Assembly: GCA_001793155.1 (NCBI GenBank)
Contig: MGHI01000026.1
Coordinates: forward strand, 271 to 64,270
Direction of reading: 5' to 3'
Length of the DNA: 64,000 nucleotides
Source of the DNA: Candidatus Woesebacteria bacterium RIFCSPLOWO2_01_FULL_39_61
GTDB lineage: Bacteria > Patescibacteriota > Microgenomatia > UBA8517
This document shows, piece by piece, positions 2,698 to 47,077 of this stretch. The notes beneath the pieces were generated by a model. The model did no database searches. It was not told the DNA's origin and saw nothing but the letters and a program-made list of their open reading frames with translations. Position 1 is the stretch's first letter, and every line of letters starts with the position of its first letter. The translations under genes and the position numbers were made by a program.

Positions 2698-5046
2698 TTA
2701 TATCTTTATTGTTTTCAGGCGAAGAGAATTTCCGACAACAGAAATTGAGCTGGCTGCCATAGCGAAAGCGGCAAGAGCCGGATTAAGAAGTAGTCCAAAA
2801 AATGGGTATAAAATTCCCATCGCAACTGGTATAAGGATAACATTGTAACCAAAAGCCCAAAAAAGATTTTGTTTTATTACCGAGAGTGTTTTTTTGCTGA
2901 GATTAATTGCAGTATTCACCATCCTTAGGTCCTTATTCAAAAGAGTAATTCCGGCTGATTCCATTGCTACATCCGTTCCAGTAGCCATGGCAATACCTAC
3001 ATCCGCACTTGCCAATGCGGGGGCATCATTAATGCCGTCACCGACAAAAGCTACGAAACTGCCCGGTCTTTTTTTGAACCCTCTAACTTTCTCGGCTTTA
3101 TCCGCCGGCAATACTTCCGCCAAAATATTTTTTATACTAGCCTCATTTGCAATCGCTTTTGCCGTCGTTTCATTATCGCCAGTTATCATCCAAACTTCGA
3201 TTCCTTTTCTCCTAAGATCCGAAACCATTTCTGCGACACCTGATTTGAGCGTGTCCGCAATTGCTATAACTCCTACATGTATCCCGTCTACGGAAACATA
3301 AGCCAAGGTTTTTCCATCTTCGGTCCAACTCTTGGTCTTTTCTTCCAAATTTTTATTTATATTTATCTTGTTACTATCCAAGAGTTTTTTATTTCCTACG
3401 ATAACCTTCTTATCCAGAACTATTCCTTCTACCCCAAATCCCTCTATTGCCTTAAAGTTTTTAACCGACATCATATACCGTTGTGTTTCACCCGTGTCAA
3501 ATTTGCCAACTATGGCTTTAGAAAGTGGGTGTTCAGAGTGATACTCCACGCTGGTCAGCAAACCCTTTATTTCTTCATCCTTTAGATATTTCTTATCTGA
3601 GCTGTCAAATTTATAATCTGTAACTAACGGCTCTCCTTGAGTTAGGGTACCGGTTTTATCAAAAATAACCGTTTTTACTTTATGAGCCGTCTCAAGAGCT
3701 TCTGCGTCTTTGATTAAGATTCCCTTTTCTGCACCTCTGCCAGTACCAACCATAATTGCGGTTGGGGTTGCAAGCCCGAGTGCGCAGGGACAAGCAATAA
3801 TAAGAACCGCAATCATATTCGTAAACGCCTGAGAAAAAGTTCCCAGGTCATACCAAACTACAAAGGTTGTTACCGCAAGCATCAAAATAATAGGCACAAA
3901 ATATGAAGAAATTACGTCAGCCAGCCGTTGAATTGGTGCACGCGAAGATTGCGCTTCGGAAACCATTTTTACAATTTGGGAAAGCATGGTATTTTTACCG
4001 ACCTTCGTTGCCCGAAATATAAATGACCCGTTTTTATTAATGGTTGCTCCGATTACATTGTCTCCAACTTTTTTATCCACCGGGATTGATTCGCCGGTTA
4101 CCATCGATTCATCTATCGAACTTGACCCTTCGATAATTTCACCGTCAACCGGAATTTTTTCTCCCGGTCGGACTCTAATTTTGTCACCATCGATAACTTC
4201 TTCGATCGGGATATCAATTTCCTTTCCATCCCTAAAAACCCGGGCTGTCTTGGCCTGTAAACCTAAGAGTTTTTTAATAGCATCGGACGTATGGGCCTTT
4301 GCTTTTGCTTCCAGGTATCTACCCAAAAGAATAAGGGTGATAATAATGGAAGCCGTGTCGTAATACATAACCCTGGGAAAACCCAGGTTTTCAAGATTAC
4401 TTCCAAAAAGTGTCACTAATAGTGAAAATCCATAAGCAGCAGATGTTCCAAAGGCAATTAAGGTATCCATACTTGCAGTTCTATTCCGAAGACCCGACCA
4501 AGTCGCCTGATAAAATCCTTTACCCGCCCAAAATTGAACCGGGCTGGAGAGAATAAGTAAGACAAACGGGTTAGTTAAGAATCGGGGTATAAATGTAAAC
4601 CACTCCGGAAAACTTCCAAGAAAAATAAATGCGGAAAGAATAGATGAAACTATTACCTTAATTTTTAAATCTGCCAATTCTTTTTTCTTTTCAGTTTGTT
4701 TAACCTCGTCAGCCGTTTTTTGTTTATCTTCATCTACAAATACTGCCTTATAACCGGCTTTTTCTACGGCTTCTGCCAGATCTTTATCTTTAACTTTGGG
4801 ATCACATTCTACACTCGCCTCTTCACTAGCATAGTTGACAGAGGACGAAATTACTCCAGGAGTTTTTTGTAAACTCCTTTCAATTAACCGTGCGCATGAA
4901 GCACAGTGCATTCCGATGACGGGGAATGACTTCTTAACAAATTTTGAGTTATTCAAACTCGCCTTAGGCGAGGAGTGAACAAACTCGCTCGAAGGGTCGA
5001 TTCGCAGTTTACTGCGAATTGGTTTATTCAACGATGATTTTTCCAT
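2698..5046 (-). CDS. copA: Copper-translocating P1B-type ATPase
   Basis: N-terminal HMA domain [12 protein letters not shown]. Transmembrane CPC motif ([11 protein letters not shown]). DKTGTLT phosphorylation site. GDGINDAP hinge. Confidence 0.92.
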
Positions 5047-5383
5047 GATACATATTCATACCGCAATGAAAGCCGACTTCTCCAACCTTCTGTGGTGTTA
5101 TCTCAATATCGACTTGTTCATTCAAGGGCAAATACTTTTTAATCTTAAATTCGGGTAAAATTATTTCTTCTAAACAGGTATTTGGGTCTTTACGTGTAAT
5201 CTTAAGAGTGGTTTTTATTCCTTTTTTTAATCGAATTGCAGCCGGTTTATACCCTCCATCTACAATAATATTTATCTCGCTCGAAGCCCTTACCACCTCT
5301 TCTTTCTTTCCAAAGAAAAACCAGTAGATTAGACCTACCAGTCCGACGCCCAATGTTGTTACAAGTAGCTTATTTAATTCCAT
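5024..5383 (-). CDS. Membrane-anchored cupredoxin-like domain protein
   Basis: N-terminal TM helix. C-terminal [10 protein letters not shown] motif is shared with the C-termini of 8928..9923 (YTCSMGMYTG) and 11516..12058 (YYCLIGQH). Looks like the cupredoxin_1-like copper-binding domain family (from memory). Confidence 0.55.
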
Positions 5384-5386
5384 GGA

Positions 5387-5605
5387 TTATTTTTCCTTGT
5401 TGCCTTTTAGCCAAAAATACCTGATAAGTGCAACGAGTAGCATCACAATTAGTATCCAAGTGATAAACCGCATCAGGCCCAAAAACGGCCAATACGAGCT
5501 TACATTTTGGTAATACTTTTGCATCATTTGTCTCATTGATTCGGGCATAGAATCCCAATTTCCGTAATAACCACCGTCAAATATATGACCCATCATACAT
5601 ATCAC
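5387..5605 (-). CDS. Small Met/His-rich membrane protein (72 aa), possible Cu-binding
   Basis: MMGH…MPESMRQMMQ Met-rich N-terminus followed by a TM helix. Sits in the copper operon. Confidence 0.35.
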   Translation of the reverse strand: MICMMGHIFDGGYYGNWDSMPESMRQMMQKYYQNVSSYWPFLGLMRFITWILIVMLLVALIRYFWLKGNKEK

Positions 5606-5871
5606 CTCCCTGTCTTATTCATCTTATTGTATAGAAAGGCAAATAAATATCCCACCAGCCAGCTCCCGGCAACGGTAGTTATAAGTCCGAGTGTAAAATT
5701 GCCTCTGGCAGCTCCTGTCCAAATTTTCCCCAAATCCATTCCGTGAAACCAACTAATGGCAACTGTTTTTGAAACTTCCGGGAAAATCCCGATCAGAATC
5801 GCGCAGGTGAAATAAACCACTCCCATTGTCAAGGCCAAAGAATTTGCCAGAACACTTTCTCTTATTTTCAT
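5602..5871 (-). CDS. Small 2-3 TM membrane protein (89 aa; start revised from 5949 to ATG 5871)
   Basis: Strong RBS AAGGAGGGGGTGA 5 nt upstream of ATG at 5871. The track's longer ORF starts inside the upstream structured repeat element. Confidence 0.5.
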   Translation of the reverse strand: MKIRESVLANSLALTMGVVYFTCAILIGIFPEVSKTVAISWFHGMDLGKIWTGAARGNFTLGLITTVAGSWLVGYLFAFLYNKMNKTGR

Positions 5872-5892
5872 TATTCTCACCCCCTCCTTTTT

Positions 5893-6012
5893 TATGACAT
5901 TCTCCCCGCTACTTATGTGCGGGGTTTCTCTTCCAAAAGAGAATGACATATCAGAGTTCGATTCATCTCTGGGTCAATTGCCCAGAGTTTTCTCGAGATC
6001 TGCTATAAAATC
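5893..6012 (+). repeat. Structured repeat element, copy A: ATGACATTCTCCCCGC…GCGGGG hairpin + U-tract, ATGACATAT box, CTCTGGG…CCCAGAG hairpin + UUUUCUCG
   Basis: About 80% identical over about 115 nt to 13853..13972. Also related to the minus-strand copy at 33414..33509. The hairpin arms differ between copies while the stems stay paired. Confidence 0.55.
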
Positions 6013-6142
6013 TTAAAGATCTAAAACGACTATTAATTTTACAATTTCAGAGAAATCTGCTGTCCTTTGAAAAAGGAATTTACATCTGATTTATTTTTTC
6101 TTTGTCTACCTTTCTTTTGGGAAAAGAAAGGTAGAGTTAAGG

Positions 6143-7390
6143 TTATGCTCCGCAACTCCCTCCGCTCTTACCTCCATATGGTAATGGGCCGACTTTCTGA
6201 TTTAATTTTGCGGCGCCCTGACCTGAAGAATACTCCGAGCTTAAGACCAGTTTTGCATCGACTTTATCCCAGTTTATTCCCTGTCGGGCAAAGTATGTTG
6301 CGATTGTTAAATAATTTTGGGGAAACCAAAAAGAGTTCAACTTCAATACATTTTTGTAAATTTCCTCATCTGATATTCCCTTAGAAACCATTAACTCGAT
6401 TGCGGCGAGGGCTGCCATGCCGTGATTACAATCGGGAAAGGCAGTGTGATTTCCACAACATGGTCTATAAACATTTTCCGCTATTTCCATAACTTTCTTC
6501 TGCTGCTCCGAGGTAAGGGAAACGATATCGTGCTTATTGTAATGGTCCATCGCATTCCCGCGCGCCAGAGTCCAACCCCCTGTCGATGCAAAATTTCCGA
6601 CTTTTGCTTTATTCTCCTTGCCCATCGGTCCAATCTCGTAAACTAAACTTTTCTGCGCAAGCCCCAAGGCCCATAAAAGGTCGACGACGAATTGACCATT
6701 CTTACTATTTATACTGATCATTTGATCGCTATTACCGGCAAAGACTTGTTTTTCGGAATCTCCCATTGCAACAGCTTTCTCAAATTTCAGTTTATCAATT
6801 GCACCTAACTCAACTAATTTCGGAGCTATATCTCCCCAAGAGATCGGAAGCTCAAATCCTTCTTGCGGTAAAACCGTCTCGGGTAGCTTTGTTAAATCCA
6901 AAAGTGCATAGTTTTGTATTGTCCACTCATCCATACCGCCCTCGAGGTGGCGTATATTTTTATAGCCCGTACTCTTCAATGTCGCCAGAGCCTCAGCGCT
7001 CATTCTTCCTGTTTTACAATAAAGAATAATGGGTGTTTCCTTATCTTTTGGAAGCTTATCGCTGTTGGCAACCATTAAGTCGTAGTCAATGAATAAATCG
7101 GTCTTTTCAATCTCCCCTTCGTAAGGGGTGTGAACATTAATTAAAATCGGATTTGCCCCCTGGCTTGTCTTTGCATCAAGTTCACTTTTAAGATCTTTGG
7201 CTGATATTTCTTCTTCTTTTGAAACTCTCACTGATTTCACCTCTGTCCAGGGGAAACTCAACTCCCCTGCGTTTTTCCCCAACCAAAAGCCGATAGAAAG
7301 AAGCATCAGAAAAATCCCGAGTGTAAAGATCTCTCTATTTTTCTTGACAAATTTTTTGTAAGTTTTAATTCTAACTTTTGATAAAACCAT
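6143..7390 (-). CDS. Membrane-anchored rhodanese (sulfurtransferase) domain protein fused to a Cys-rich C-terminal domain of unknown function
   Basis: N-terminal TM helix. Rhodanese active-site loop YCKTGRMS (CX4R). C-terminal CCGNHTAFPDCNHGMA … SGGSCGA. Sits in the CsoR-headed operon. Confidence 0.65.
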   Translation of the reverse strand: MVLSKVRIKTYKKFVKKNREIFTLGIFLMLLSIGFWLGKNAGELSFPWTEVKSVRVSKEEEISAKDLKSELDAKTSQGANPILINVHTPYEGEIEKTDLFIDYDLMVANSDKLPKDKETPIILYCKTGRMSAEALATLKSTGYKNIRHLEGGMDEWTIQNYALLDLTKLPETVLPQEGFELPISWGDIAPKLVELGAIDKLKFEKAVAMGDSEKQVFAGNSDQMISINSKNGQFVVDLLWALGLAQKSLVYEIGPMGKENKAKVGNFASTGGWTLARGNAMDHYNKHDIVSLTSEQQKKVMEIAENVYRPCCGNHTAFPDCNHGMAALAAIELMVSKGISDEEIYKNVLKLNSFWFPQNYLTIATYFARQGINWDKVDAKLVLSSEYSSGQGAAKLNQKVGPLPYGGKSGGSCGA

Positions 7391-7414
7391 AGGTTTATCC
7401 CAAATCTTTAAAAT

Positions 7415-7981
7415 TTAAATATAATAATTTATGAGAATATATACTCCGATACTTGCTAGAGTTACAGATCCCAAACTAAATGCCATAGACTGGTAGGGGA
7501 AAAGAGATTTACCGTTTTTTCTTTTTATAAATATGTTTCCGATGTCCACCAAATAAAAAACCGCAGACCCCAAAATCATCCCAAAGGTTAGCTTATCCAA
7601 GCCAAAGATATTATCCATTCTTATTATTAAATTAAATCGATAGAAAGACCAAAGTGTTACAACAAAAATAGTTAGGTATATAAAAAATCCGACGAAACGG
7701 TTAAAGAAAATCTTATTTTTTTGTCCTAAGTATCTTAATAGCCAAAACGCGCTTGCTCCCAAAAGCGCTCCAATCCAAATTCCGGTGATGGAATCGTCCA
7801 CTCCGACCCAACGAGTCAAAGTTATCCCCGCCGCGGCTCCCGCAACACAGAGTGGACAGTGTGCTTGGATTACCCTGGGAAATCCAAAAAATATAACATT
7901 TATAACGATTATAAAAGTTATGACGCAACTTAAAGTTGCGACATATCGAACTTTGTTCGCTATAATAATTGTCTTTCTCAT
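7415..7981 (-). CDS. Polytopic membrane protein with a CPLC motif in the first extracytoplasmic loop
   Basis: Five or six predicted TM helices. C42-P-L-C45 only; no second Cys pair, so not a canonical DsbB. Overlaps neighbours by 4 nt (operon). Confidence 0.4.
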   Translation of the reverse strand: MRKTIIIANKVRYVATLSCVITFIIVINVIFFGFPRVIQAHCPLCVAGAAAGITLTRWVGVDDSITGIWIGALLGASAFWLLRYLGQKNKIFFNRFVGFFIYLTIFVVTLWSFYRFNLIIRMDNIFGLDKLTFGMILGSAVFYLVDIGNIFIKRKNGKSLFPYQSMAFSLGSVTLASIGVYILINYYI

Positions 7982-8487
7982 TTAACAACCACACCATTAA
8001 ATTTAAGCTCTTTTATCCCTGCTGGATCACTAAATGTTAAAAAAACTGATCTGTCAACAGGACCTGCTCCCTGTGGACCATGTGCTGCAGGATCAAAACG
8101 AACAATAGTCTTCCCTGTTGCCCCGGCGCCGATTTCAACATTTACAGAGGGGTTTTTATCACCGTGTCCCTCCATTCCGAAAAATTTAGTAGCCTCGCCT
8201 CCAATTTCAAATGAAGCTTTTGTACACATACAAGAGGTGGTAATTTTCTTTATTATCAACGTCTTATCGGTAGTATTTTTTATCTCGTATTCTTTGGTTA
8301 CAAGACCTCCGTTTATAGGTACATTTCCCAAGTCATAATTACCCGGATTGACCTCGATCCCTACCGCGTCTCCCAGGATTTGAGAATCTTGGGAGCTTTC
8401 AACTTGAGTGTTATCTTTCCCTTGCAAAAAAATAAAACCAAAAATAAGCAATATCGTTACTCCGATAGTAATAATTAAAGGTTTCAT
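7978..8487 (-). CDS. DUF1573-like secreted protein with an SCMCT motif
   Basis: Signal-anchor N-terminus. TTSCMCTKA resembles the DUF1573 CGCT signature (from memory). Beta-rich. Confidence 0.5.
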   Translation of the reverse strand: MKPLIITIGVTILLIFGFIFLQGKDNTQVESSQDSQILGDAVGIEVNPGNYDLGNVPINGGLVTKEYEIKNTTDKTLIIKKITTSCMCTKASFEIGGEATKFFGMEGHGDKNPSVNVEIGAGATGKTIVRFDPAAHGPQGAGPVDRSVFLTFSDPAGIKELKFNGVVVK

Positions 8488-8490
8488 GGT

Positions 8491-8781
8491 TTAACTTTCC
8501 GATTTGTTAAAAACATCCAGTATTTCATTTACTAACCTATTGTTTTTACCCCCATCTTTTTTAATTTCAGCCAAGACACAACCCCGCAGATGACCATCAA
8601 GTACCAACTCGTCAACTTTCTTTAATGCCGACTGGACTGCTTGGGATTGATGTATAACATCAATGCAATACTTATCATCAGCGACCATCTCGATTATTTT
8701 CTCCAGGTGACCTTTTGCAATCACAAGTCGGTGAAGAATTTTATTTTTAGTTGGTTCCTTCGTATATAAACGTGTGTTCAT
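8491..8781 (-). CDS. csoR: CsoR-family copper-sensing transcriptional repressor
   Basis: 96 aa. Cys in KYCIDV plus H-x3-C in LDGHLRGC gives the C-H-C Cu(I) ligand set of CsoR (DUF156 fold). Operator-like palindrome immediately upstream. Confidence 0.8.
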   Translation of the reverse strand: MNTRLYTKEPTKNKILHRLVIAKGHLEKIIEMVADDKYCIDVIHQSQAVQSALKKVDELVLDGHLRGCVLAEIKKDGGKNNRLVNEILDVFNKSES

Positions 8782-8791
8782 AATTTTCTAC

Positions 8792-8808
8792 ATCCCCCGT
8801 GGGGGGAT
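8792..8808. promoter_or_regulatory. Candidate CsoR operator: ATCCCCC-GTG-GGGGGAT palindrome in the csoR/8928 divergent promoter
   Basis: C-tract/G-tract inverted repeat. Resembles known CsoR operators such as B. subtilis copZA TACCC…GGGTA. Confidence 0.5.
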
Positions 8809-8927
8809 ATGACTATCATACAACTTTTATTCCGGCTGTCAATCTCCTATATCGTCTTTAATAAAAAATCTACTTTTTATTCTAAAAATTTGGTATGCTA
8901 TACCAATCATTAAGAGGTAAATTAAAC

Positions 8928-9923
8928 ATGAATCAAGTTTGGTTGGCATTTATAACGGGTTTAACCACAGGTGGAGTTTCCTGCTTTGCAATTCAGGGGG
9001 GATTGCTTGCATCAAGTCTTTCGAATCAGCAAAAAGATAACCAAAAAAACGCGGTTATTGTTTTTCTTTCCTCGAAACTTGTAGCTTACTCAATCCTGGG
9101 AATAATTTTAGGAGCTTTAGGTTCCACTCTGGTTATTTCTCCCAAAATTCAGGGTCTCATGCAAATCTTTGCTGGTCTTTTTATGCTGGCTACAGTAGGA
9201 AAACTCCTTAATATTCATCCCTTATTCAGATACTTCACATTAACCCCACCTAAGGCGATTTTCAGAATTGTTCGTTCAAAAAGCTTGGATTCGGGCTTGT
9301 TTTCGTCTTCAACCCTGGGATTTTTAACCGTGCTTATACCCTGCGGGGTCACACAAGCAATGATACTTCTTTCTGTTGCTTCCGGAAGTGCGCTATACGG
9401 TGGATTAATTCTGGCGGCATTTGTAATAGGAACATCACCGGTATTTTTTGCGCTCGGAATCGCCTCGGGGGAAATATTAAAAAGAAATTCACTTAAATAT
9501 CTTGCCGCTTTAGCTATTTTTATTCTCGGAGTAATTTCGATTAATACCGGCCAAATACTTCGGGGCTCCGTTCACACCCTACAAAATTACTACGCCGCAG
9601 CAACCGGAAATTTGTATTCAAAAAATTCCAAACTCGTGGCAGGGGTATCTGCATCCGGGAAGCAAGAGGTCGAAATTAAGGTTACAAGCGGGGGTTATCA
9701 GTCAAATATTCAAACCTTAAAAGCGGGAGTACCTGTTTCTCTTACCCTCGTTTCCCAGAATGTAAGCAGCTGTGCCCGCTCATTCACGATTCCGGAATAT
9801 AATATCTCAAAAGTTCTACCCCAAACCGGAGTTTCAACGGTCGAATTCACACCAACGAAAAGAGGCAGACTAACCTATACCTGCAGTATGGGGATGTATA
9901 CGGGATATTTTGAGGTAATTTGA
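8928..9923 (+). CDS. Polytopic membrane protein fused to a C-terminal cupredoxin-like domain (track start 8895; ATG 8928 has the RBS AAGAGGT)
   Basis: About six TM helices, with single Cys in TM1 and a PCG in a later TM. The C-terminal about 90 aa carries YTCSMGMYTGYFEVI, as in 5024..5383. Confidence 0.55.
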   Translation: MNQVWLAFITGLTTGGVSCFAIQGGLLASSLSNQQKDNQKNAVIVFLSSKLVAYSILGIILGALGSTLVISPKIQGLMQIFAGLFMLATVGKLLNIHPLFRYFTLTPPKAIFRIVRSKSLDSGLFSSSTLGFLTVLIPCGVTQAMILLSVASGSALYGGLILAAFVIGTSPVFFALGIASGEILKRNSLKYLAALAIFILGVISINTGQILRGSVHTLQNYYAAATGNLYSKNSKLVAGVSASGKQEVEIKVTSGGYQSNIQTLKAGVPVSLTLVSQNVSSCARSFTIPEYNISKVLPQTGVSTVEFTPTKRGRLTYTCSMGMYTGYFEVI

Positions 9924-9924
9924 T

Positions 9925-10122
9925 ATGACAAAAAAGACTTACAAGGTTAAAGGAATGGATTGCGATGCCTGCGCAAAAATGATCGAGCTGGATTTGGAAG
10001 ACCAAAATATAAAGGCGTCATGCAACTATGCAAAGGAACTTTTGGAAGTTGAATTAACGGACGATAAAGACGAAGAGAAAGTTAAAAATATTGTAAAAAA
10101 CGGCGGATACGAACTTGCTTAA
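9925..10122 (+). CDS. copZ: Heavy-metal-associated (HMA) copper chaperone
   Basis: 65 aa. GMDCDAC metal-binding motif. RBS GAGGT. Confidence 0.8.
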   Translation: MTKKTYKVKGMDCDACAKMIELDLEDQNIKASCNYAKELLEVELTDDKDEEKVKNIVKNGGYELA

Positions 10123-10127
10123 GATCT

Positions 10128-11270
10128 TCAGTTATTTGAAATGTTCTCAAGAGATACTTGAGCCTTTTTAAAATATTTGTTGTAGGCTAGAGCTTGCTCA
10201 AATTCATTTTTTGCCAAATCTTTTTTCCCTTGATCTAAATATATTTCTCCTCTTATTTGGTAAAGTTCGGAATAAGCTCTGTTTCCATTTTCCAAAACTT
10301 TTGCGATAATCGTAAATACTCGATCGTATTTTCCCAGCTTTTGATAAGATTGAATAGGTTCTATCTGGTACCAAAGCATCCGTTTTGGCAGACGATCTTC
10401 AACCTTTTCAAAAGCTGTGACTGAATTTTGGTAATCCTCAAGGTGATAGTAAGCAGTGGACATATTAAACCAGGGATAAACACTATCTTGGGAAAGTTGA
10501 CTTTCCCTTTCAGCTCGCTCTAGTGCATTCTCCCAAGCAACTTTTTCATCTATCTCTGAACCTAATATTGCTTCGACTAAACTTTCCTGTTCCTGCTTAT
10601 AAACAATGATGTAAGCATAATTAAAAGGTTGCCAGAGCGATAAAAAGTCATAATATGAAAATTTCATATTAGGTCCTTCGTAGGAATCATCTTGAATAAT
10701 TACTTTCTTTGATTCATCAAATCCTCTCACAATCCTGAAATGTCCTATATCCTCATTAACGTGCAGCCAGGTTTTTACTACAACAGGAATTCCATTGGTG
10801 GTAAATTTTTTCAGAAGTTCTATATCCCCGTTAACCCGTCCAGTTGCTTCAAACCCATATTCTTTCACCCAGTCCACAAATTCGTAAGTGAAAATCGTCT
10901 TATCGTCATTGTCTCCTTTTTGGTTTTGGTAAGGCCGCATTTTATCTGCCAGCTCGGATTGTGAAACGTTTCTTCCGTACCAGCCTAAAACCATCGATAA
11001 AGTCGCCGGTCCGCAGTTATTGAAAGTCTGATAGATATGACGGGGATTAGTTACAAGCGCCGAATTTCCCGGTTTTTTTATTCCAGCTGAGCTTTGAGCG
11101 TTACCTGAATCCTGGAGTTCTCCAATAGTCGGAGTTATTTCTTTCCTGACATCCGTAACAAATTTTGTCTCAATAGCTGGACTCGGCCTGTTTGTCCAGA
11201 AAAATACGCCTCCAGTAATAAGGATTGCTGCGGCAACAGAAAATACTAATAATCTTTTCATCATCCCCAA
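10128..11270 (-). CDS. Membrane-anchored C39-like (papain-fold) peptidase domain protein with C-terminal TPR repeats
   Basis: NNCGPATLSMVL Cys motif plus downstream His. C-terminal helical repeats with the TPR-like pattern (…YYHLEDYQNSVTAF…YLDQGKKDLAKNEFEQALAYN). Confidence 0.5.
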   Translation of the reverse strand: MGMMKRLLVFSVAAAILITGGVFFWTNRPSPAIETKFVTDVRKEITPTIGELQDSGNAQSSAGIKKPGNSALVTNPRHIYQTFNNCGPATLSMVLGWYGRNVSQSELADKMRPYQNQKGDNDDKTIFTYEFVDWVKEYGFEATGRVNGDIELLKKFTTNGIPVVVKTWLHVNEDIGHFRIVRGFDESKKVIIQDDSYEGPNMKFSYYDFLSLWQPFNYAYIIVYKQEQESLVEAILGSEIDEKVAWENALERAERESQLSQDSVYPWFNMSTAYYHLEDYQNSVTAFEKVEDRLPKRMLWYQIEPIQSYQKLGKYDRVFTIIAKVLENGNRAYSELYQIRGEIYLDQGKKDLAKNEFEQALAYNKYFKKAQVSLENISNN

Positions 11271-11344
11271 ATTATACTTGAAGGTAACAAGTTCGCATCA
11301 TTTTCAGGAAAAATTCAGCTTAATTGGTTATTATTTATCCCACA

Positions 11345-11373
11345 AAAAAACTGGGGAGCTTGCACTCCCCAGC
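11345..11373 (-). terminator. Rho-independent terminator (minus strand)
   Basis: CTGGGGAG-CTTGCA-CTCCCCAG 8-bp stem preceded on the plus strand by A7 (= U7 on minus). Confidence 0.5.
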
Positions 11374-11472
11374 GTCAGATGTACTTGATTTAAGACTAGT
11401 TTCAGAATTCCCTAGTCCATAGGACTAGGGATGAATGAACCTGGGCTAGAAGCCTCGCCGAAGGCGTATCTT

Positions 11473-11508
11473 AAAAAAATGCCTCAGACCTCTGTGTCTG
11501 GGGAGGCT
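11473..11508 (-). terminator. Rho-independent terminator of the 11516..12058 gene (minus strand)
   Basis: GCCTCAGAC…GTCTGGGGAGGC imperfect stem adjacent to A7 on the plus strand. Confidence 0.5.
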
Positions 11509-11515
11509 TCACTTC

Positions 11516-12058
11516 TTATTCAACGATAAGCGTTCCGACCTGTCCCAGCTTTCTGTGTTGTCCTATTAAACAATAATATTCAAACTCTCCGAGTTTATTG
11601 GCGACAAAATCGATAGTTGTTGTTTCTCCTGCGTTTAACGTAGGACTTTTTACTCCCAATTCATCGATATTAAAATTGTGCATCGCGTCCATTGCTTTTA
11701 AATTTATCTTAACCGTTTGTCCTTTTTTAACACGGATTTCTTTAGGATTAAAGTAAAAACTACCCGCTTGCATTTCTATTGTCACAACCTTAGAGTCTGT
11801 CGAAGTTCCTTCAACCGGCTGACTGGTTGGTCGCGGTGTCGGAGTACTTGTCACAATCCTATTTTGAGTAGAGTTAGTACTTACTTCAGTTTGTGCAGGA
11901 AGAGTCTCTGGAGTTTTACTCCCCCTGCGACTTGCTAAAATTGCGCCGCCCACAAGGGCGACTGCCAAAATTAATCCTCCCACGAGCATCAAATAGGAAC
12001 TTTTATTAGATCCAACTTGTTCTTTCTTTTCGTCTTCTATCTTTTGCTCTTCTTCCAT
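11516..12058 (-). CDS. Membrane-anchored cupredoxin-like protein (track start 12067 is GTG; ATG 12058 has the RBS GGAGGGGGTGA)
   Basis: N-terminal TM helix. Thr/Pro-rich linker. C-terminal MHNFNI…YYCLIGQHRKLGQVG, consistent with H…C…H…Q type-1-copper-like ligands. Confidence 0.55.
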   Translation of the reverse strand: MEEEQKIEDEKKEQVGSNKSSYLMLVGGLILAVALVGGAILASRRGSKTPETLPAQTEVSTNSTQNRIVTSTPTPRPTSQPVEGTSTDSKVVTIEMQAGSFYFNPKEIRVKKGQTVKINLKAMDAMHNFNIDELGVKSPTLNAGETTTIDFVANKLGEFEYYCLIGQHRKLGQVGTLIVE

Positions 12059-12259
12059 GTACTTCACCCCCTCCAGTTAAGTAGCTCTTTTCAAGAGCAC
12101 TTAACTTAAATCACGTTAGATGCATTTCATGCTATCTAACTGTGATCCGCAAAGCTCGTCCAGGTATCATCTTAACTAAATTTTATGAGAAAAAGCTGAA
12201 AGCTATTGTAACATACAAGTTTTTTTCTTCTAAGAAGTCATTTCCAAAAATACTTAAGG

Positions 12260-13432
12260 CTACAATTTCTCGGGGTTAATTCGAAGGATTTTATCGTCTC
12301 CTGATTTTGGTATTCCGCGCCCGTCGCGATTACTGGTTGTTATATAAAGCATACCGTCCGAACCTATTATTACTTCCCTCAACCTTCCAAATTCTCCCTT
12401 AAAATGTGTTACTAATTTAGGGGAATTAATTGCATTCTCTACTTCATATAAGGCTTGCCCCCTTAGGCCTGCGAAATAAAAACTATCGTTCAGGTATGAA
12501 ATCCCTGCGGGAGCCCAGGTATCGGCACGACCCGATTCTATAATTGGAGCAATCATACCTTCTTTTGTTTGTTTACCTCGAATTTCCGGCCAGCCATAAT
12601 TTTTCCCAATTTCAATCTTGTTGAATTCATCGTTGCCAGTTTCGAATCCCGAAGGACCATGTTCGGTCTCCCATAAATTTCCGTCTTTATCCCAAACTAT
12701 TCCTTGGGGGTTTCTATGACCATATGTATAAGCCCGATTACCGAAAGGGTTCCCGGGTGCAGGCTTACCCTCGTCAGTTACGCGCAAAATTTTTCCGGCT
12801 AAAGAATTTTTGTCCTGGGCGTGAGACGGGTTTTGAGCATCACCTGTCGTAATATAGAGCATATTGTCCGGACCGAATTTAATTCTTCCCCCGTCATGAT
12901 TAGAGTTACCCGGAATTGCATCGACAATTATTTTTTCGTCACGCATACTATTACCGTCATAGGTATAGCGAACAACCCGATTTAAAGTGTTCCCCTCAGA
13001 TCCCGAATAAGTATAGTAAAGATAAACAAATTTGTTATCATGAAAGTCGGGATGAAGCGCAATTCCATGCAGTCCTCCTTCGCCAATTTGCTTTACAGCA
13101 GAAATTGTAATAACAGGATCGTCTTTTAATTCCCCGTTTTTTGAAATAAATCTAACTCTGCCTTTTCTTTCCGTAACCAGCATTCCACTTTCGGGTAAAA
13201 AGACAAGTCCCCAGGGAACTTCCAACCCTTGAGCAACAATACTAACAGCTGGGATATCGGCTTTTTCAGATGGGGTGTCTGAATTACTACCGTGTAATGG
13301 CAACTCACTTACAACATTTTCCTTTCCATCTGATTTTTCAACTTGCTTGGTGCTTCTGACATAAAAAAAGCCAACTATCAAAAGAAGAAATCCAGTTAAA
13401 ATAACAGGAAGAGTGAATCCTCGTCTTGTCAT
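12260..13432 (-). CDS. PQQ-dependent sugar dehydrogenase (soluble glucose/sorbosone dehydrogenase family beta-propeller)
   Basis: GLEVPWGLVFLPESGMLVTERKGRVR and repeated propeller blades. N-terminal signal anchor. Confidence 0.75.
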   Translation of the reverse strand: MTRRGFTLPVILTGFLLLIVGFFYVRSTKQVEKSDGKENVVSELPLHGSNSDTPSEKADIPAVSIVAQGLEVPWGLVFLPESGMLVTERKGRVRFISKNGELKDDPVITISAVKQIGEGGLHGIALHPDFHDNKFVYLYYTYSGSEGNTLNRVVRYTYDGNSMRDEKIIVDAIPGNSNHDGGRIKFGPDNMLYITTGDAQNPSHAQDKNSLAGKILRVTDEGKPAPGNPFGNRAYTYGHRNPQGIVWDKDGNLWETEHGPSGFETGNDEFNKIEIGKNYGWPEIRGKQTKEGMIAPIIESGRADTWAPAGISYLNDSFYFAGLRGQALYEVENAINSPKLVTHFKGEFGRLREVIIGSDGMLYITTSNRDGRGIPKSGDDKILRINPEKL

Positions 13433-15992: not shown

Positions 15993-16604
15993 ATGTTAAA
16001 TTGGCATATGTTTTTAATACCGGAAAGTTACTGGGAAATTAAAAAAACGAAAAATAAAGGAAGGGGTGCTTTTGCCAGGAAACCAATTGAGCAAGGAACA
16101 CTCATCGGTGATTACGTGGGCAAATTAGTTCATCTAAAAGATTTCGATTTCGATAAAGAAAAGAAAAAATTATACTTGATGTTTTACAACGATGAGTTGG
16201 GCATTTATCCCTATTTAAAAAAACCCGGCGTACACCTCATAAACCACTCATGCTTCCCCAATTGTTGGATAATAAGATATAAAGATCACACTATTATCTT
16301 TACTTTAAAAAATATCAAGAAGAAAGATGAGTTAACTATTTCATATCTGCTTCCTCCAAAAACAAATTGCAAACCTTGCCCTCACAAATGTTTCTGCAGA
16401 TGTAAAAATTGCACAGGGACGTTGCACTTAACCGAAAGTGACTACAAAAAATGGCAGGAGTTTCAGGATAAAGAAGACGACAAAAATAAGTCTAAAACAA
16501 AGAGGTTGGCAGACAAACTCAAACCTTTTAAAAAATACCCTAAATTTGTTTCCAAACGACTTATATCAAAGATCAAAGCGTTGCAGAAAGAAATGTATGG
16601 ATAG
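15993..16604 (+). CDS. SET-domain protein (putative lysine methyltransferase)
   Basis: NHSCFPNC. ELTISY (ELxxxY). Post-SET Cys cluster CFCRCKNC. N-terminal GRGAFA. Lys-rich C-terminal tail. Confidence 0.8.
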   Translation: MLNWHMFLIPESYWEIKKTKNKGRGAFARKPIEQGTLIGDYVGKLVHLKDFDFDKEKKKLYLMFYNDELGIYPYLKKPGVHLINHSCFPNCWIIRYKDHTIIFTLKNIKKKDELTISYLLPPKTNCKPCPHKCFCRCKNCTGTLHLTESDYKKWQEFQDKEDDKNKSKTKRLADKLKPFKKYPKFVSKRLISKIKALQKEMYG

Positions 16605-43231: not shown

Positions 43232-43400
43232 AAATAAGTCCATAAAGCTCTTTAACAAGTAAAGATTGTGTGTTGAAAAAATGTTCACAAACCAAATGGA
43301 GGTGTGCTGTGGACAGAAAAGGTAAGATCCAAAACTTACAACTGAATATTTCAGGGAGTAACGAGAATCAAGATTTCACCAACCAGAGTTCTAGATACAA
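43232..43400 (+). repeat. Leader repeat, copy 2
   Basis: ATAAAGCTCTTTAACAAGTAAAGATTGTGTGT…GTTCACAAACCAAATGGAGGTGTGCTGTGGAC…TTACAACTGAATATTTCAGGG. Confidence 0.45.
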
Positions 43401-43413
43401 AAGGAGAACTTCG

Positions 43414-46400
43414 ATGTTTAAGAAAGTCACGCACGTTGTAATTTCGATGGTGTTGATACTGCTTTTCTTTCCGCACGACACCAACAGAGTGCAGGCAGCT
43501 CAGACTATCCGTCTGCCTTTTCCACCACTTTATAGCTACAACCCAGCAAATGGTTCTTTTAGCCAAAACAGAGTTCCAATTACAGATGCTTGCCAAGATG
43601 GACAGGGCGCAGCTGGAACTCACATCGAGCACACCCGTAATGCTAGGTTTGCGGTTGATTTCGGAATGAGAACTGGAACTCCTGTTTACGCTCCTGTTTC
43701 GGGAGACGTCGTCTATGCTGCTTATACAGCCGGTTACGGTCTACTAATGCGTATTAGAGAAAGTAGCGAACGGGAACATTACTTGGCTCATCTCTCAAAG
43801 TTCTATGTAACGAGTGGGCGTGTCAACCAAGGTGATCTTGTAGCTCTATCTGGTGAGACAGGAAAAGGTCCTGCACATCTACACTACCATGTTCAAAAAC
43901 CAGGCGGCGGTACCGCTATTCAAGACGCGGACGATGTTCGTGATGAGCTACCAGGAATTAACTGGATCGATTCTAGCGACTACTGTAATCAAGGTGGTGC
44001 GATCGATGGGACAGCTCATGCATCACCACTCCCAAATGGCGGTTCTCCAGCCAATAATTGTGCCGAGTTTTACAACCAAGGGCGTCCCGGTGTATGGGGA
44101 TTTGACGCTCCGAACTGCCAGGGCAACGTTGTTTTTGGTTCCCTATCTGACGGGACAAATTTCAACTTGGCACAGAATAATGTCAATGATCGTTTGCGAT
44201 CTATTTCTGCACGACCAAATCTGCATTTCTGGCTCTACGCCCACACAGACAGCGAATCCTTGAAGCACTGCCATGAAAAGGATATGTGGAATCTGGATAC
44301 AGACAACTATAACTTCACAACAACTGATATGATAGGTTGGGATTCAGATTACGACAAGCAAAATGTCGGTGGCGGAGAGTTAGTTAGTACTGGCTACAAC
44401 ATGGTCTCCCGTCTAAGGGTCGTAACCGAAGCGTGTCCCCAGAATCAAGGTAGCAGAGTGCAGGCTTACGAAATAAGCACTGGCTACGGAATAGGCGGCG
44501 GAGGCGATATTACTTCTCCTGAAACTTCTGCTTCCTTTATAGGAACTGAGGGCAATAATAACTGGTATGTTTCGCCGGTTACGGTTGTTCTCTCTGCCTA
44601 TGATGAATTTGATGTGGCACATACTTACTACCGTATTAATGGCGGAAACATCACTGAGGGAACAAGCTTCTCTCTCGATGTAGAAGGAATCTACGCTGTA
44701 GAATTCTGGTCAGAAGACTCGAGTGGTAATGTAGAATCCACAAAATCCGTCCCAGTTAAGATTGACTGGACACCTCCGGAAACCACCTGTGAAGTTTTAG
44801 GTTCTCGCGACATGCTCGGAATTTTCCGCAGCCCCGTTGACAACACATGTTCGGCAACGGATAACTTATCCGGACCGGACTACACGGAATACTCGTTCGA
44901 CAACGGCAACACCTGGAACCTTTATGGTGGAGTTTTCACCTTAAGTGATAACGGCGTCTACGAGTATCTTTTCCGAAGTGTTGACATTGCCGGAAACGTT
45001 GAAGATGCAAAACCCTCCGGGGTTATCGACATCAAGCGCTTTGTCATCTTGACGAATTCGCTGACAAGTAACAGCGCAACCACCCTCCAGACTTTGGGAG
45101 TGGCCCACACAAATGGGAATGCGGGTTTTACTAATAACAATACAGTCCACCTGCAAACCCTTGAGTACTTAGGCCAGTTTACCCAATCGGGTAATGTGTC
45201 TTTCACCATCGATAACCTGGTTCAATCAAGTCAAGTGGAAACTTTACCGCTCTATCCTTTAAGTTTCTACAGAGATGTCTGCACGTTCATACCAGGACCG
45301 ATCATTGACCGTTCCACATCTCGAACTTACAACGAATGTTGGTATGTAGACGGCGACATTACTCTGGAAACTACGGGTTCAACTGGAAATCTCACGATTA
45401 TCAGTGAAGGAGTAATTTACGATAGAAGCACCAATTCGCATCTATCAGCCTGGGATACTACTAATGGAATCCTTTACTACGCTCGCCGAGGATATGTAAC
45501 CGAGTCGGGAGGAGCCGTCTATAACGGGGTTATTTACGCTCCGTACTCAAGTGTAAGCGGTCCGTTTACCAACTCAACACTCTCTGGTGGAATATTTGCC
45601 AACAACCTGAGTTTGAGCGCCGGTACGAGTTTGAGTGCCCAGCAGGCTGCCGGTTTCCCCCCGTCGACCTATCCTCTACCGCTTATCGCTGTCGAGCAAC
45701 CTGTACCTAACATTATCTATGTTAGCTCGATGGGCGGCGGAACTGTCGGTGGAATTGCGACAGCTGACGAGGACATCCTAACCTATAACCGCGAGCAGGG
45801 TAGCTACGCAATGTTCATCGACGGATCGGATATAGGACTTTCCTATACGGATATTGACGCCTTCTTTGCGTTACCAGATGGGACCTTCCTGATGAGCTTT
45901 GATTCGAGCATAAGTGTCAGTCCTTTGGGAACTGTCTATTATGCCGACATCGTCCGCTTTACCCCAACCTCGCTCGGATCTACCACCGCGGGTACTTTTG
46001 AATGGTACTTTGACGGATCAGACGTTGGTCTTACAACAAGCGACGAGGATATTGATGCAATCGGCTTTACTCCCCACGGTAAACTCGTAGTCAGCACCTT
46101 AGGCTACGTAAGCGTCACTGGTGTTTCCGGTAACGACGAAGACTTAATCGTCTTTACGCCAACCAGTTTGGGAGCAAACACCGCAGGAACCTGGGCTTGG
46201 TACTTTGACGGATCAGACGTCGGCTTGAATGAATCCTCTTACGAGGATATCAACGGCATCTGGATTGACCCAGTCACCGGACAAATCTACCTAACTACGG
46301 TAGGATCCTTTAGCGTTAGCGGCTTAAGTGGCGACGGAGCGGATATTTTTATCTGTACACCCAGTTCTTTGGGATCAACCACTGCCTGTACTTACGGCCC

Positions 46401-46473
46401 GGGACTTTACTGGGACGGATCGAAGAACGGCTTTTCCGGAAAAGTTCTCGACAGCGTCGTAGTTCAAAAGTAA
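43414..46473 (+). CDS. Secreted M23-family metallopeptidase, about 1019 aa, with C-terminal novel repeats (start revised to ATG 43414 with the RBS AAGGAGA)
   Basis: Signal peptide MFKKVTHVVISMVLILLFF. M23 motifs HIEH…D and HLHYHV. Four C-terminal repeats of about 60 aa (TPTSLGSTTAGTxxWYFDGSDVGL…). Confidence 0.75.
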   Translation: MFKKVTHVVISMVLILLFFPHDTNRVQAAQTIRLPFPPLYSYNPANGSFSQNRVPITDACQDGQGAAGTHIEHTRNARFAVDFGMRTGTPVYAPVSGDVVYAAYTAGYGLLMRIRESSEREHYLAHLSKFYVTSGRVNQGDLVALSGETGKGPAHLHYHVQKPGGGTAIQDADDVRDELPGINWIDSSDYCNQGGAIDGTAHASPLPNGGSPANNCAEFYNQGRPGVWGFDAPNCQGNVVFGSLSDGTNFNLAQNNVNDRLRSISARPNLHFWLYAHTDSESLKHCHEKDMWNLDTDNYNFTTTDMIGWDSDYDKQNVGGGELVSTGYNMVSRLRVVTEACPQNQGSRVQAYEISTGYGIGGGGDITSPETSASFIGTEGNNNWYVSPVTVVLSAYDEFDVAHTYYRINGGNITEGTSFSLDVEGIYAVEFWSEDSSGNVESTKSVPVKIDWTPPETTCEVLGSRDMLGIFRSPVDNTCSATDNLSGPDYTEYSFDNGNTWNLYGGVFTLSDNGVYEYLFRSVDIAGNVEDAKPSGVIDIKRFVILTNSLTSNSATTLQTLGVAHTNGNAGFTNNNTVHLQTLEYLGQFTQSGNVSFTIDNLVQSSQVETLPLYPLSFYRDVCTFIPGPIIDRSTSRTYNECWYVDGDITLETTGSTGNLTIISEGVIYDRSTNSHLSAWDTTNGILYYARRGYVTESGGAVYNGVIYAPYSSVSGPFTNSTLSGGIFANNLSLSAGTSLSAQQAAGFPPSTYPLPLIAVEQPVPNIIYVSSMGGGTVGGIATADEDILTYNREQGSYAMFIDGSDIGLSYTDIDAFFALPDGTFLMSFDSSISVSPLGTVYYADIVRFTPTSLGSTTAGTFEWYFDGSDVGLTTSDEDIDAIGFTPHGKLVVSTLGYVSVTGVSGNDEDLIVFTPTSLGANTAGTWAWYFDGSDVGLNESSYEDINGIWIDPVTGQIYLTTVGSFSVSGLSGDGADIFICTPSSLGSTTACTYGPGLYWDGSKNGFSGKVLDSVVVQK

Positions 46474-46618: not shown

Positions 46619-47077
46619 TTATTTCGTGAAGGTAACCGTTCTTGTTTCGCCCGAAGCTGAGGCTACTAATCTTCCATTTGCGTCTACCATAATGAGATAA
46701 TCCTCGCTAGTCTTTGTTTTCGGATCTGTAGGAATTTCGGCCATATATTCGGGAACTATTGTTTCGCCCGTCTCTCCTGCACTGGCCAGATCAAAACACC
46801 CAAAACTCGATCCAATACAGGTTAATGACGTCGGAAAGTTACTGGTCAGGGGATCTCCGTCCGTATCCGGTAAATCACCGCTATGCTCCGAGGTGTATTG
46901 ATAGATTGCACCCAAAATCGCGAGAATGTCGGTTTCTCTTTGAGTATCTCTGGCTTTGGCCAATTGCCTTCCCGGATTAATAACTACAACAAGGACTGTC
47001 GATAAAATACCTATAATAGCAATAACCAAAAGCAGTTCAAAAAGTGTAAAACCTTCAATAATTTTTGTTTTCATCAC
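46619..47077 (-). CDS. Type IV pilin (major pilin-like)
   Basis: Class III signal MKTKIIEG|FTLFELLLVIAIIGIL with Glu at +5. Confidence 0.8.
   Translation of the reverse strand: MMKTKIIEGFTLFELLLVIAIIGILSTVLVVVINPGRQLAKARDTQRETDILAILGAIYQYTSEHSGDLPDTDGDPLTSNFPTSLTCIGSSFGCFDLASAGETGETIVPEYMAEIPTDPKTKTSEDYLIMVDANGRLVASASGETRTVTFTK

Follow-up and report, generated by a model that had tools for sequence, protein, structure and literature searches.

Why should a rhodanese fused to a Cys-rich domain be encoded in the middle of a set of copper-efflux genes? The question is raised by a locus on contig MGHI01000026.1 of Candidatus Woesebacteria bacterium RIFCSPLOWO2_01_FULL_39_61, of which a stretch of 64,000 nucleotides with a GC content of ~39%, called the window below, was analyzed. 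The known core of the copper locus occupies positions 2698-10122. On the minus strand, the genes are transcribed in the order csoR, DUF1573, a membrane protein carrying a His-Cys-Pro-Leu-Cys motif (the HCPLC protein), the rhodanese fusion, DUF5676, a Met-rich open reading frame (ORF), a CupA-type cupredoxin, and copA. They are packed as an operon, the spacing ranging from -23 to +24 nt, with the exception of ~271 nt between the rhodanese fusion and the DUF5676 gene; a DsbD_2-Cupredoxin_1 fusion and copZ are divergent from this string. All the features listed in a preliminary description of this DNA were found at their positions, based on the ORF list, the translations, and the Pfam and NCBIfam matches. 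That description read the rhodanese fusion as a sign of a link between copper and sulfane sulfur analogous to that of the CstR systems. When the locus is compared with its relatives, the conserved element is the Cys-rich domain and not the rhodanese, a point which the preliminary description had missed.

The rhodanese fusion (6143-7390, minus strand), which is 100% identical to a hypothetical protein on record for this member of the Patescibacteria, has a transmembrane anchor at residues 20-38, preceded by 8 Lys/Arg residues, and its N-terminus is predicted to lie inside the cell. The rhodanese domain (residues ~55-163, 6902-7228) matches PF00581 with 42.6 bits (cutoff 22.2, E = 8.5e-11), and this part gives the only NCBIfam match of the fusion. 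It matches the PDB sequences 6MXV and 1QXN, and in a Foldseek search its model resembled single-domain rhodaneses such as 3GK5 (TM-score 0.84, root-mean-square deviation 1.8 Å). The catalytic loop reads C125-K-T-G-R-M-S, and Cys125 is kept in the family members that have a rhodanese domain. The domain thus shows the rhodanese fold and a six-residue loop bearing the catalytic Cys, and is a putative sulfurtransferase. The second half of the fusion noted previously, the Cys-rich domain (residues 164-415, 6146-6901), is also present, and the profile search performed with it matched no known family: no Pfam match was obtained even at E <= 10, nor any NCBIfam family, and the family profile gave only noise against the PDB sequences (E >= 0.26). 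The model of the domain had no structural neighbor in the PDB in Foldseek searches (best E = 1.9). The AlphaFold2 (AF2) models themselves are of high confidence: the predicted local distance difference test score (pLDDT) is 92.9 and the predicted template modeling score (pTM) 0.84 for the full-length fusion, and these values are 95.4 and 0.93 for the Cys-rich domain alone. Confidence is low only in the C-terminal tail, which is consistent with a flexible tail, and C321-N-H starts a helix.

The residues conserved in this domain form a clear signature. Arg309, Cys311, Cys312, Asn314, Asp320, Cys321, Asn322, His323, Gly324, and Cys413 were invariant in 129 diverse sequences, giving in the window protein the motif R309-P-C311-C312-x-N314 … D320-C321-N322-H323-G324. 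The pattern CC-x-N-x5-9-C-[NS]-H-G was present in 146 of 150 representatives. Nearly all the complete members end in a Gly-rich tail with a Cys residue third from the end (GGSCGA, GGGCGV), which is Cys413 here.

At 90% identity the family falls into 6437 clusters, and at 50% identity 480 representatives remain; at least 586 genomes were found to have a relative of the Cys-rich domain in a scan including one genome per species. The related sequences are all metagenome-derived, and the taxon labels are used here as deposited. The best 80 of these at least 586 genomes bear almost only names of Patescibacteria (Woese-, Gottesman-, Levy-, Davies-, Ames-, Roizman-, and Chisholmbacteria, WWE3, several groups of Parcubacteria, and Saccharibacteria), and two of the 80 are metagenome-assembled genomes (MAGs) of DPANN archaea (Micrarchaeia and Bilamarchaeaceae). 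The loci of these two MAGs (L073 in Micrarchaeia and L026 in Bilamarchaeaceae) encode a rhodanese-Cys-rich fusion with 37-41% identity and an HCPLC-like or CcdA-like partner; L026 also has a CopG/DUF411 protein. If their archaeal origin is taken from the labels, these fusions suggest that a transfer has occurred between the candidate phyla radiation (CPR) and DPANN. Some third-party annotation (TPA) MAG records are labeled "uncultured Gammaproteobacteria" (others Pseudomonadales, Anaerolineaceae, or Brocadiaceae) and carry loci with the appearance of Patescibacteria (L006-L009, L013, L019, L020, L023, L024, L037, L047, L054, and others), which are 55-63% identical to the Woesebacteria operon and syntenic with it; the taxon labels of these records are probably wrong.

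In order to study the neighborhood of the domain, 82 related loci, mostly from MAGs and amounting to 1.196 Mb, were compared. The rhodanese part was present in only 22 of them, and in only 3 of 62 long representatives of the family, and can therefore be regarded as a clade-specific accessory to the conserved Cys-rich domain. Other members carry other N-terminal fusions, namely an HMA domain (P0149), a type-1 cupredoxin (P0270), the N-terminal domain of DsbC, or a BNR domain, and in 23 of 150 representatives the N-terminal part is a domain with five or six transmembrane segments, 19 of these having a CxxC motif which is mostly CPxC. In one locus (L002, 4461-9502), a stand-alone Cys-rich member lies beside a YcnI-like DUF1775 protein and an HMBD-MauE fusion; a ferric-reductase-domain protein with a large extra domain and small proteins starting with "A-H…" after signal-peptide-like segments are also encoded there. 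No csoR or copA gene occurs within 8 kb in L002, which constitutes a second, different copper-related context.

The Cys-rich domain is closely linked to copper genes. In tblastn searches, copA was detected in 57 of the 82 loci, DUF1573 in 55, csoR in 50, the DsbD_2 fusion in 28, a CupA-like protein in 27, copZ in 21, DUF5676 in 19, and the HCPLC protein in 17. When only the 28 loci flanked by 8 kb or more on both sides are counted, 25 have copA, 22 csoR, and 21 DUF1573. DUF1573 lies directly 3' of csoR in 20 loci. The linkage between the Cys-rich domain and the copper genes holds across at least four gene orders: csoR-DUF1573-HCPLC-fusion-…-copA; csoR-DUF1573-domain-CcdA-like … cupA-copA-DsbD_2-copZ; csoR-cupA-copA-DUF1573-CcdA-like-fusion; and variants occurring in Parcubacteria.

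The domain also has steady partners. A CcdA-like membrane protein of ~278 residues with PCC…CCAP motifs was identified in 51 loci by de novo clustering of the ORFs; its gene is always on the same strand as the domain gene and usually abuts it. The protein has no Pfam match and is related to the DsbD_2 domain, as indicated by profile comparison (hhalign probability 99.6%, E = 2e-24). A CcdA-like or an HCPLC gene is present on the same strand within 2.5 kb in 68 of the 82 loci, and the two rarely occur together: the CcdA-like partner alone is encoded in 49 loci, the HCPLC partner alone in 17, both in 2, and neither in 14. Other recurrent neighbors encode DsbA-like proteins (22 loci), VKOR (18), thioredoxin reductase (12), thioredoxin (9), AhpC/TSA (8), and CopG/DUF411 (8).

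The DUF1573 protein of the window (7978-8487, minus strand) is an Ig-like protein matching PF07610 (47.5 bits, cutoff 26.1) and anchored in the membrane by one N-terminal transmembrane segment; it is predicted to face outward. Its motif is T-S-C-M-C-T, and that of the loci T-S-C-x-C-T, with x being Met in 34 out of 51. Since selenoprotein members of DUF1573 carry U-G-C at this motif (PMC9312934), it can be taken as the functional site. The steadiness of DUF1573 and of the CcdA-like or HCPLC partners speaks for thiol redox chemistry or the handling of Cu(I), and not for sulfane sulfur.

The HCPLC protein, mentioned previously as a membrane protein with a CPLC motif, is encoded by an ORF of 188 codons (7415-7981, minus strand). 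No Pfam or NCBIfam family was matched, the only Pfam matches being weak ones far below the cutoff (E 1.5-7.7). It has 292 relatives; those bearing a taxon name are all Patescibacteria, and none of the relatives has a Pfam domain. The motif A-H-C-P-L-C-V-A-G is kept in 116-117 of 117 sequences and is preceded by a hydrophobic stretch ending in (V/A)-x-A; the mature N-terminus after cleavage by signal peptidase is therefore probably His41-Cys-Pro-Leu-Cys (nt 7847-7861). The Lys/Arg distribution of the cleaved protein fits four transmembrane segments with the motif outside. The possibility that this protein might be a split-off form of the fused CPxC multi-transmembrane domain was considered and set aside (hhalign probability 16%), and the two are treated as analogous only.

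The regulator heading the string belongs to a well-characterized family. The CsoR protein (8491-8781, minus strand) matches PF02583 (Trns_repr_metal) with 78 bits (cutoff 22.8, E = 7.2e-22), and the PDB sequences 3AAI, 2HH7, and 4M1P with E values of 4e-12 to 7e-11, the aligned CsoRs of solved structure being those of Thermus, Mycobacterium tuberculosis, and Geobacillus. Cys39, His64, and Cys68 occupy the columns of the M. tuberculosis residues C36, H61, and C65 (2HH7), and the preceding Tyr (Y38) is also conserved; the C-H-C ligand set claimed in the preliminary description was thus completely retained upon realignment. A CstR or an RcnR/FrmR-like regulator was ruled out by these ligands and by the best NCBIfam match, which was RicR.

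The palindrome ATCCCCCGTGGGGGGAT, located at 8792-8808 in the intergenic region between csoR and the divergent DsbD_2 gene, consists of two perfect 7-nt arms (ATCCCCC and GGGGGAT) separated by a 3-nt spacer (GTG). It occurs as a single copy in the 64-kb window and in 0 out of 100 dinucleotide-preserving shuffles. Since a palindrome search allowing up to 3 mismatches is uninformative, 1.9 matches being expected by chance, the exact match and the conservation across genomes were used instead. The palindrome starts 6 nt downstream of the -10 box of the promoter-like site TTGACA-16 nt-TATGAT (8815-8842, minus strand), which, based on consensus matching only, is the best sigma-70-like site between 2400 and 13800 (11/12 matches). 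The stronger argument is cross-genome conservation: the pattern (AT|TA)C4-7-N1-7-G4-7(AT|TA) was found 34 times in the 82 loci, 29 times upstream of csoR within 175 nt, and 26 of these 29 palindromes lie within 31 nt of the estimated csoR start. In one locus (L036), a palindrome lies directly upstream of the DUF1573 gene, csoR being located elsewhere in that locus. The suggestion made previously that this C/G-tract palindrome is bound by CsoR is therefore well supported by computation, and we consider it to be the putative CsoR operator.

The half-site of the palindrome differs between lineages, being of the Microgenomates type ATCCCC…GGGGAT or the Parcubacteria type TACCCC…GGGGTA. When compared with L001-L065, the loci having the TACCCC type were L034, L035, L041, L043, L055, L059, L075, and L078; their CsoR proteins are only 28-40% identical to that of the window. 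TACCCC is the classical CsoR box, and the shift between lineages may reflect the co-evolution of repressor and operator.

The efflux core itself (CsoR, CupA, CopA, and CopZ) is ordinary and of known families. The 119-residue cupredoxin (5024-5383, minus strand) matches PF13473 (E = 7e-21) and the CupA structures 2MRY/4F2E (E = 5e-24), and has an N-terminal transmembrane anchor at residues 6-24; the end of its gene overlaps the start of copA. Its residues C70 and C107-G-M-N-M align with C74 and C111-x-M113-x-M115 of CupA, in which the Cu(I) sites are formed by C74/C111 and C74/M113/M115 (PMC5646241). Judging by this alignment, it is a homologue of the CupA-type membrane-anchored Cu(I) chaperones. 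CopA (2698-5046, minus strand) is a Cu(I)-exporting ATPase of the P1B-1 type with E1-E2_ATPase, Hydrolase, and HMA domains, and matches TIGR01511 (635.7 bits, cutoff 397) and TIGR01525 (662.5 bits, cutoff 346); its translation shows the CPC and DKTGT motifs and a single N-terminal HMA domain with GMHCASC (PF00403, E = 1.5e-16). Its N-terminus is thus of the HMA type and not cupredoxin-like, and the partner to which CupA hands over the metal may differ from that in the pneumococcal case, CopZ being present as well. CopZ (9925-10122, plus strand, 65 residues) is an HMA protein (PF00403, E = 8.9e-8) with the motif M-D-C-D-A-C, and its gene lies 3' of the DsbD_2 fusion in the related loci, too.

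In this divergent fusion (8895-9923, plus strand, likely start 8928), the membrane domain at 8928-9923, for which a profile search had been suggested in the preliminary description, proved to be DsbD_2, a member of the CcdA/DsbD superfamily (PF13386, 92.8 bits, cutoff 24.9, E = 3.5e-26). It has six predicted transmembrane segments, with Cys residues in the first (C30) and the fourth (C150) that are kept in 18 of 20 relatives. The C-terminal domain is a second CupA-like domain (PF13473, E = 1.2e-12; CupA match E = 6e-9) with the motif C293 … C330-S-M-G-M, and C30, C150, C293, C330, M332, and M334 are kept in 16-18 of 20 relatives. The positive-inside count weakly suggests that this domain faces outward.

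Two smaller genes lie between the rhodanese fusion and the CupA-type protein. The DUF5676 protein (PF18926, E = 1.1e-14) has two transmembrane segments; its ORF extends from 5602 to 5949 on the minus strand, and since its relatives have ~89 residues and an ATG at 5871 stands behind the Shine-Dalgarno sequence AAGGAGG, the real start is probably 5871 (5602-5871). The Met-rich ORF of 72 codons (5387-5605, minus strand) has a C-terminal transmembrane segment, is weakly conserved, being found in 4 loci, and resembles the Met-rich proteins of cluster 9; its Met/His-rich N-terminal tail is predicted from the Lys/Arg counts to lie outside, and the ORF could also be a spurious call. The longest-ORF starts are probably too far upstream in the case of the HCPLC protein, the relatives of which have ~172 residues as compared with the 188 of the ORF, as well as in those of the DsbD_2 fusion, the DUF5676 protein, and the 183-residue cupredoxin described below.

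Taken together, these features are best accounted for, in our view, by a CsoR-controlled copper-stress regulon with two layers, the second of which would be a thiol system resembling Scs; we hold this reading to be probable, although only to a modest degree. At low copper levels, CsoR would occupy the 17-bp palindrome where transcription begins and repress the csoR operon, and probably the divergent DsbD_2-copZ pair as well. The binding of Cu(I) at C39/H64/C68 would release it, whereupon CopZ and the membrane-anchored CupA-type chaperone would pass cytoplasmic Cu(I) to CopA, which would expel it; this first layer follows from the family memberships. The second layer would consist of outward-facing proteins with sulfur ligands produced from the same transcript: the DUF1573 protein with its TSCMCT motif, the HCPLC protein, the rhodanese-Cys-rich protein, the Met-rich peptide, and the CupA-like ectodomain of the DsbD_2 protein, all the motifs of which are placed outside the cell by the positive-inside counts. 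These proteins would trap Cu(I) on the outer side of the membrane and, in the manner of Scs or DsbD-DsbC, keep the surface thiols reduced or repair the wrong disulfides made by copper, the reducing power crossing the membrane via the DsbD_2 or CcdA-like protein. The tail Cys of the Cys-rich domain might act as a swinging arm that supplies the CC/C/H site with Cu(I) or electrons. The Scs-like interpretation of the second layer is based on the placement of its genes in a regulon that would be turned on by excess copper, on the persistent context of CcdA-like, thioredoxin, thioredoxin reductase, and DsbA genes, and on the HMA, cupredoxin, and DsbC_N fusions along with the chemistry of the conserved residues.

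Several points weigh against this two-layer reading. All the support for it is computational: the family memberships, the gene linkage, and the conservation of the operator and of the residues are shown, and the topology, the signal-peptide cleavage, the Cu(I) binding, the redox role, and the swinging arm are inferred, the topology having been predicted using simple hydropathy and Lys/Arg counts. Since the Cys-rich domain has neither a thioredoxin fold nor a CxxC motif, any DsbC- or ScsC-like activity could only have arisen by convergence. Most other lineages have a stand-alone CcdA-like partner, which is missing from the window, and the HCPLC protein replacing it has no detectable kinship to known redox or metal proteins. 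The DsbD_2-family proteins could also be metal transporters and not electron conduits. In addition, the frequencies given above for the neighborhoods are biased to close relatives, because the 82 loci were the ones with the highest similarity to the window protein. Lastly, the ~271-nt gap at 5872-6142 contains two hairpins (CTACCTTTCTTTT…AAAGAAAGGTAG at ~6098-6131 and CTCTGGGCAATTGACCCAGAG at 5967-5987), which makes the co-transcription of the whole csoR-copA string uncertain in this genome; the corresponding gap is only 25-45 nt long in the relatives L001 and L004, and neither a promoter-like site, a second operator, nor an Rfam family was found in it.

Three other explanations have to be set against the two-layer regulon. 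The outward-facing rhodanese might form a persulfide and pass it to the cysteines of the Cys-rich domain. Persulfide or polysulfide chemistry would in this way become part of the response to copper, serving for instance to deposit the metal as CuS on the cell surface or, as the CstR regulon does, to remove reactive sulfur species. The intact sulfurtransferase-type loop CKTGRMS fits this sulfane-sulfur route, as does the resemblance of the domain to the periplasmic polysulfide-binding protein Sud (1QXN, E = 1.4e-6), while the pTM of the full-length model suggests that the two domains are rigidly packed, and rhodanese fusions occur in bacteria as well as in the DPANN archaea (L026 and L073). The CstR fingerprint consists, however, of two Cys residues without the His ligand of Cu(I), and this His is kept in the regulator of the window. 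Furthermore, the rhodanese is missing in most of the related loci and long representatives, the genes between 660 and 14405 include none belonging to the Pfam families of persulfide dioxygenase, SQR, or TusA, the locus has no sulfite exporter, and the steady neighbors are CcdA-like, thioredoxin, and DsbA-type genes and not sulfur-oxidation genes. The CstR-like link proposed in the preliminary description is therefore not supported, and we regard a sulfane-sulfur route as unlikely.

The steady neighbors bear also on the idea that the CxC, HCPLC, vicinal-Cys, and tail-Cys sites form a thiol-ligand relay similar to MerP-MerT-MerA, which would move Cu(I) across the membrane, either from the outside into the cell or from the exit of CopA to an outer sink, possibly serving to metallate cuproproteins, and would have no redox role: the thioredoxin, thioredoxin reductase, DsbA, and VKOR genes fit a supply of electrons better. 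In Mer proteins, the metal is handed on by exactly such vicinal Cys pairs and by a Cys in the C-terminal tail, and pairs of this kind are present both in the Cys-rich domain and in the CcdA-like partners (PCC…CCAP); CPxC motifs lie inside the transmembrane segments of the fused forms, one member has an N-terminal HMA fusion (P0149), and the stand-alone member of L002 is accompanied by the YcnI-like DUF1775, ferric-reductase-domain, and HMBD-MauE proteins. Against uptake or metallation is the placement in a CsoR regulon, the genes of which would be switched on at high copper levels, and no cuproenzyme is conserved nearby in the 82 loci, so that this relay, too, seems improbable. It might also be argued that the accessory genes are simply envelope housekeeping genes, involved in disulfide formation or encoding some enzyme of another kind, which lie beside the copper genes only because these genomes are compact. 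CPR genomes are indeed small and densely packed, 14 of the 82 loci have no partner gene, 17, many of which are on short contigs, have neither csoR nor copA, and L002 shows that the domain can occur away from both. A random gene in a genome of ~1 Mb would nevertheless be expected to have copA within 10 kb in ~2% of cases, as compared with 25 of the 28 fully flanked loci; the linkage persists through at least four gene orders, the operator stands directly upstream of DUF1573 in L036, and HMA and cupredoxin fusions as well as the enrichment of Met in the DUF1573 motif tie the accessory genes to copper. Mere co-location is accordingly a very unlikely explanation.

The two-layer regulon shares features with several known systems and differs from each of them. 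As in the CsoR-CopZ-CopA systems (copZA of Bacillus subtilis, the cso operon and RicR regulon of M. tuberculosis), a PF02583 repressor with C-H-C ligands is combined with a GC-tract inverted-repeat operator overlapping the promoter, and an HMA chaperone and a P1B-ATPase are the targets. Here, however, the half-site is ATCCCCC and not of the TACCC type, TACCCC occurring in the Parcubacteria relatives, at least five further proteins, located in the membrane or facing outward, belong to the regulon and have no counterpart in these model systems, and csoR is the first gene of the string. The CopY-CupA-CopA system of Streptococcus pneumoniae (4F2E, 2MRY; PMC5646241) likewise includes a CupA homologue anchored by a transmembrane segment, with the C…C-x-M-x-M site and a gene upstream of copA and overlapping it, but the repressor in the window is CsoR instead of CopY, the N-terminus of CopA is an HMA domain and not a cupredoxin-like one, and a second CupA-like domain is fused to the DsbD_2 membrane protein.

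The resemblance to the Scs (ScsB/ScsC) and DsbD-DsbC systems of Proteobacteria lies in the combination of an outward-facing Cys protein linked to copper stress with a partner of the DsbD/CcdA superfamily, with thioredoxin and thioredoxin reductase genes nearby, and one member of the Cys-rich family has the N-terminal domain of DsbC. The Cys-rich domain itself does not belong to these families, as it has no thioredoxin fold, no fold match in the PDB, and no CxxC; the clade of the window has the unrelated HCPLC protein in place of the CcdA-like one, and the carriers are CPR and DPANN instead of Proteobacteria. In the cst operon of Staphylococcus aureus (cstA, cstB, sqr), a CsoR-family repressor also stands beside a rhodanese-domain gene with a catalytic Cys, whereas in the window the repressor keeps its Cu(I) His ligand, the rhodanese is predicted to be exposed on the outside, most relatives do without it, and the sulfur-oxidation genes are missing. 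The Mer relay comprises the CxxC of MerP, the vicinal Cys residues of MerT/MerF, and the C-terminal Cys tail of MerA; the chain of Cys residues at the present locus is similarly outward-facing, within transmembrane segments, vicinal, and on a flexible C-terminal tail, but there is no kinship in sequence or fold and no reductase, and the context is one of copper.

Of the components described above, the sensor, the chaperones, and the pump are thus known, and what is new is the accessory module, above all the Cys-rich domain, which apparently constitutes a new family. No description of this module was found in the literature searched on copper genes of CPR and DPANN, DUF1573, and DUF5676; Patescibacteria have been reported to carry copA, with nothing further on this subject (PMC8672522). 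As a more tentative proposal, plausible but falling somewhat short of probable, the Cys-rich domain might represent a new fold family of outward-facing proteins handling Cu(I) or engaged in thiol redox by means of a swinging Cys arm, which, along with the TSCMCT-type DUF1573 protein and interchangeable partners (CcdA-like, HCPLC, or the fused CPxC multi-transmembrane domain), would make up a copper defence specific to the ultra-small, host-attached CPR and DPANN organisms and shared by both domains of life. The Cys-rich surface proteins, which occur almost exclusively in CPR and DPANN, probably guard the cell surface from copper. Much of microbial diversity belongs to CPR and DPANN, organisms with tiny genomes of which almost none is in culture; a gene set that such genomes keep, and keep under the control of a copper sensor, is likely to be important for living on the surface of a host or in groundwater. 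The analysis yields a previously unannotated domain family, recognizable by a clear motif and encoded in at least 586 species-level genomes, and provides a confident model without any structural neighbor, a set of partners, and the CsoR operator as a handle for heterologous functional tests. If the Scs-like reading of the second layer is true, a thiol-based copper defence of the envelope would have arisen independently with a non-thioredoxin catalytic domain.

The genes on the right of copZ (10128-13432), which the preliminary description included in an extended copper island, lie outside the copper system: the Peptidase_C39_2/TPR gene (10128-11270, minus strand) was matched in 0, the third cupredoxin (11516-12067, minus strand) in 1, and the GSDH-family dehydrogenase (12260-13432, minus strand), previously described as a PQQ sugar dehydrogenase, in 0 of the 82 loci. 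A strong terminator-like hairpin with a T-run at 11350-11373 ends the transcript of the cupredoxin, the relatives of which in three other genomes are never beside csoR or copA. This protein of 183 residues matches PF00127 (30.4 bits, cutoff 21.2) and aligns with the NirK cupredoxin domains of 2DV6 and 6TFD. Its ligands are the His residue of AMHN, followed by C-x4-H, and a Gln residue stands in the column of the axial Met; the alignment to the NirK cupredoxin of 2DV6 thus agrees with the earlier proposal that Gln is the probable axial ligand. The statement that three proteins share one copper-site motif stands only in part, since the motifs are all present but belong to two kinds of sites, C…C-x-M-x-M in the two CupA-type domains and H…C-x4-H-x4-Q in the unrelated type-1 cupredoxin. 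The latter uses copper as a cofactor, and nothing ties it to copper resistance. Its public gene call comprises 180 residues (start 12058), and exact matches occur in the same organism only.

The Gln-axial cupredoxin gene adjoins the GSDH gene here and in one of three other genomes, and is near a Peptidase_C39_2/TPR gene here and in another genome (window 11516-13432; L085 4001-5672; L087 4001-6639). The two proteins, cupredoxin and quinoprotein dehydrogenase, may work together as an outward-facing redox pair in organisms where a respiratory chain is lacking.

Elsewhere in the 64-kb window, no Rfam family, even tRNA, was detected at the gathering score. The only GC-rich patch of the window (0.48 vs. 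~0.39) is a single ORF of 1067 codons at 43270-46473 on the plus strand, encoding a secreted protein with an M23-peptidase-like HxH signature (HLHYHV) and long Gly/Ser/Thr-rich repeats; a gene for a pilin-like protein lies just downstream (46619-47077, minus strand). Bacterial SET-domain methyltransferases are uncommon, and a SET-domain protein of 203 residues (PF00856, listed for the identical gene in L083) is encoded at 15993-16604 on the plus strand.

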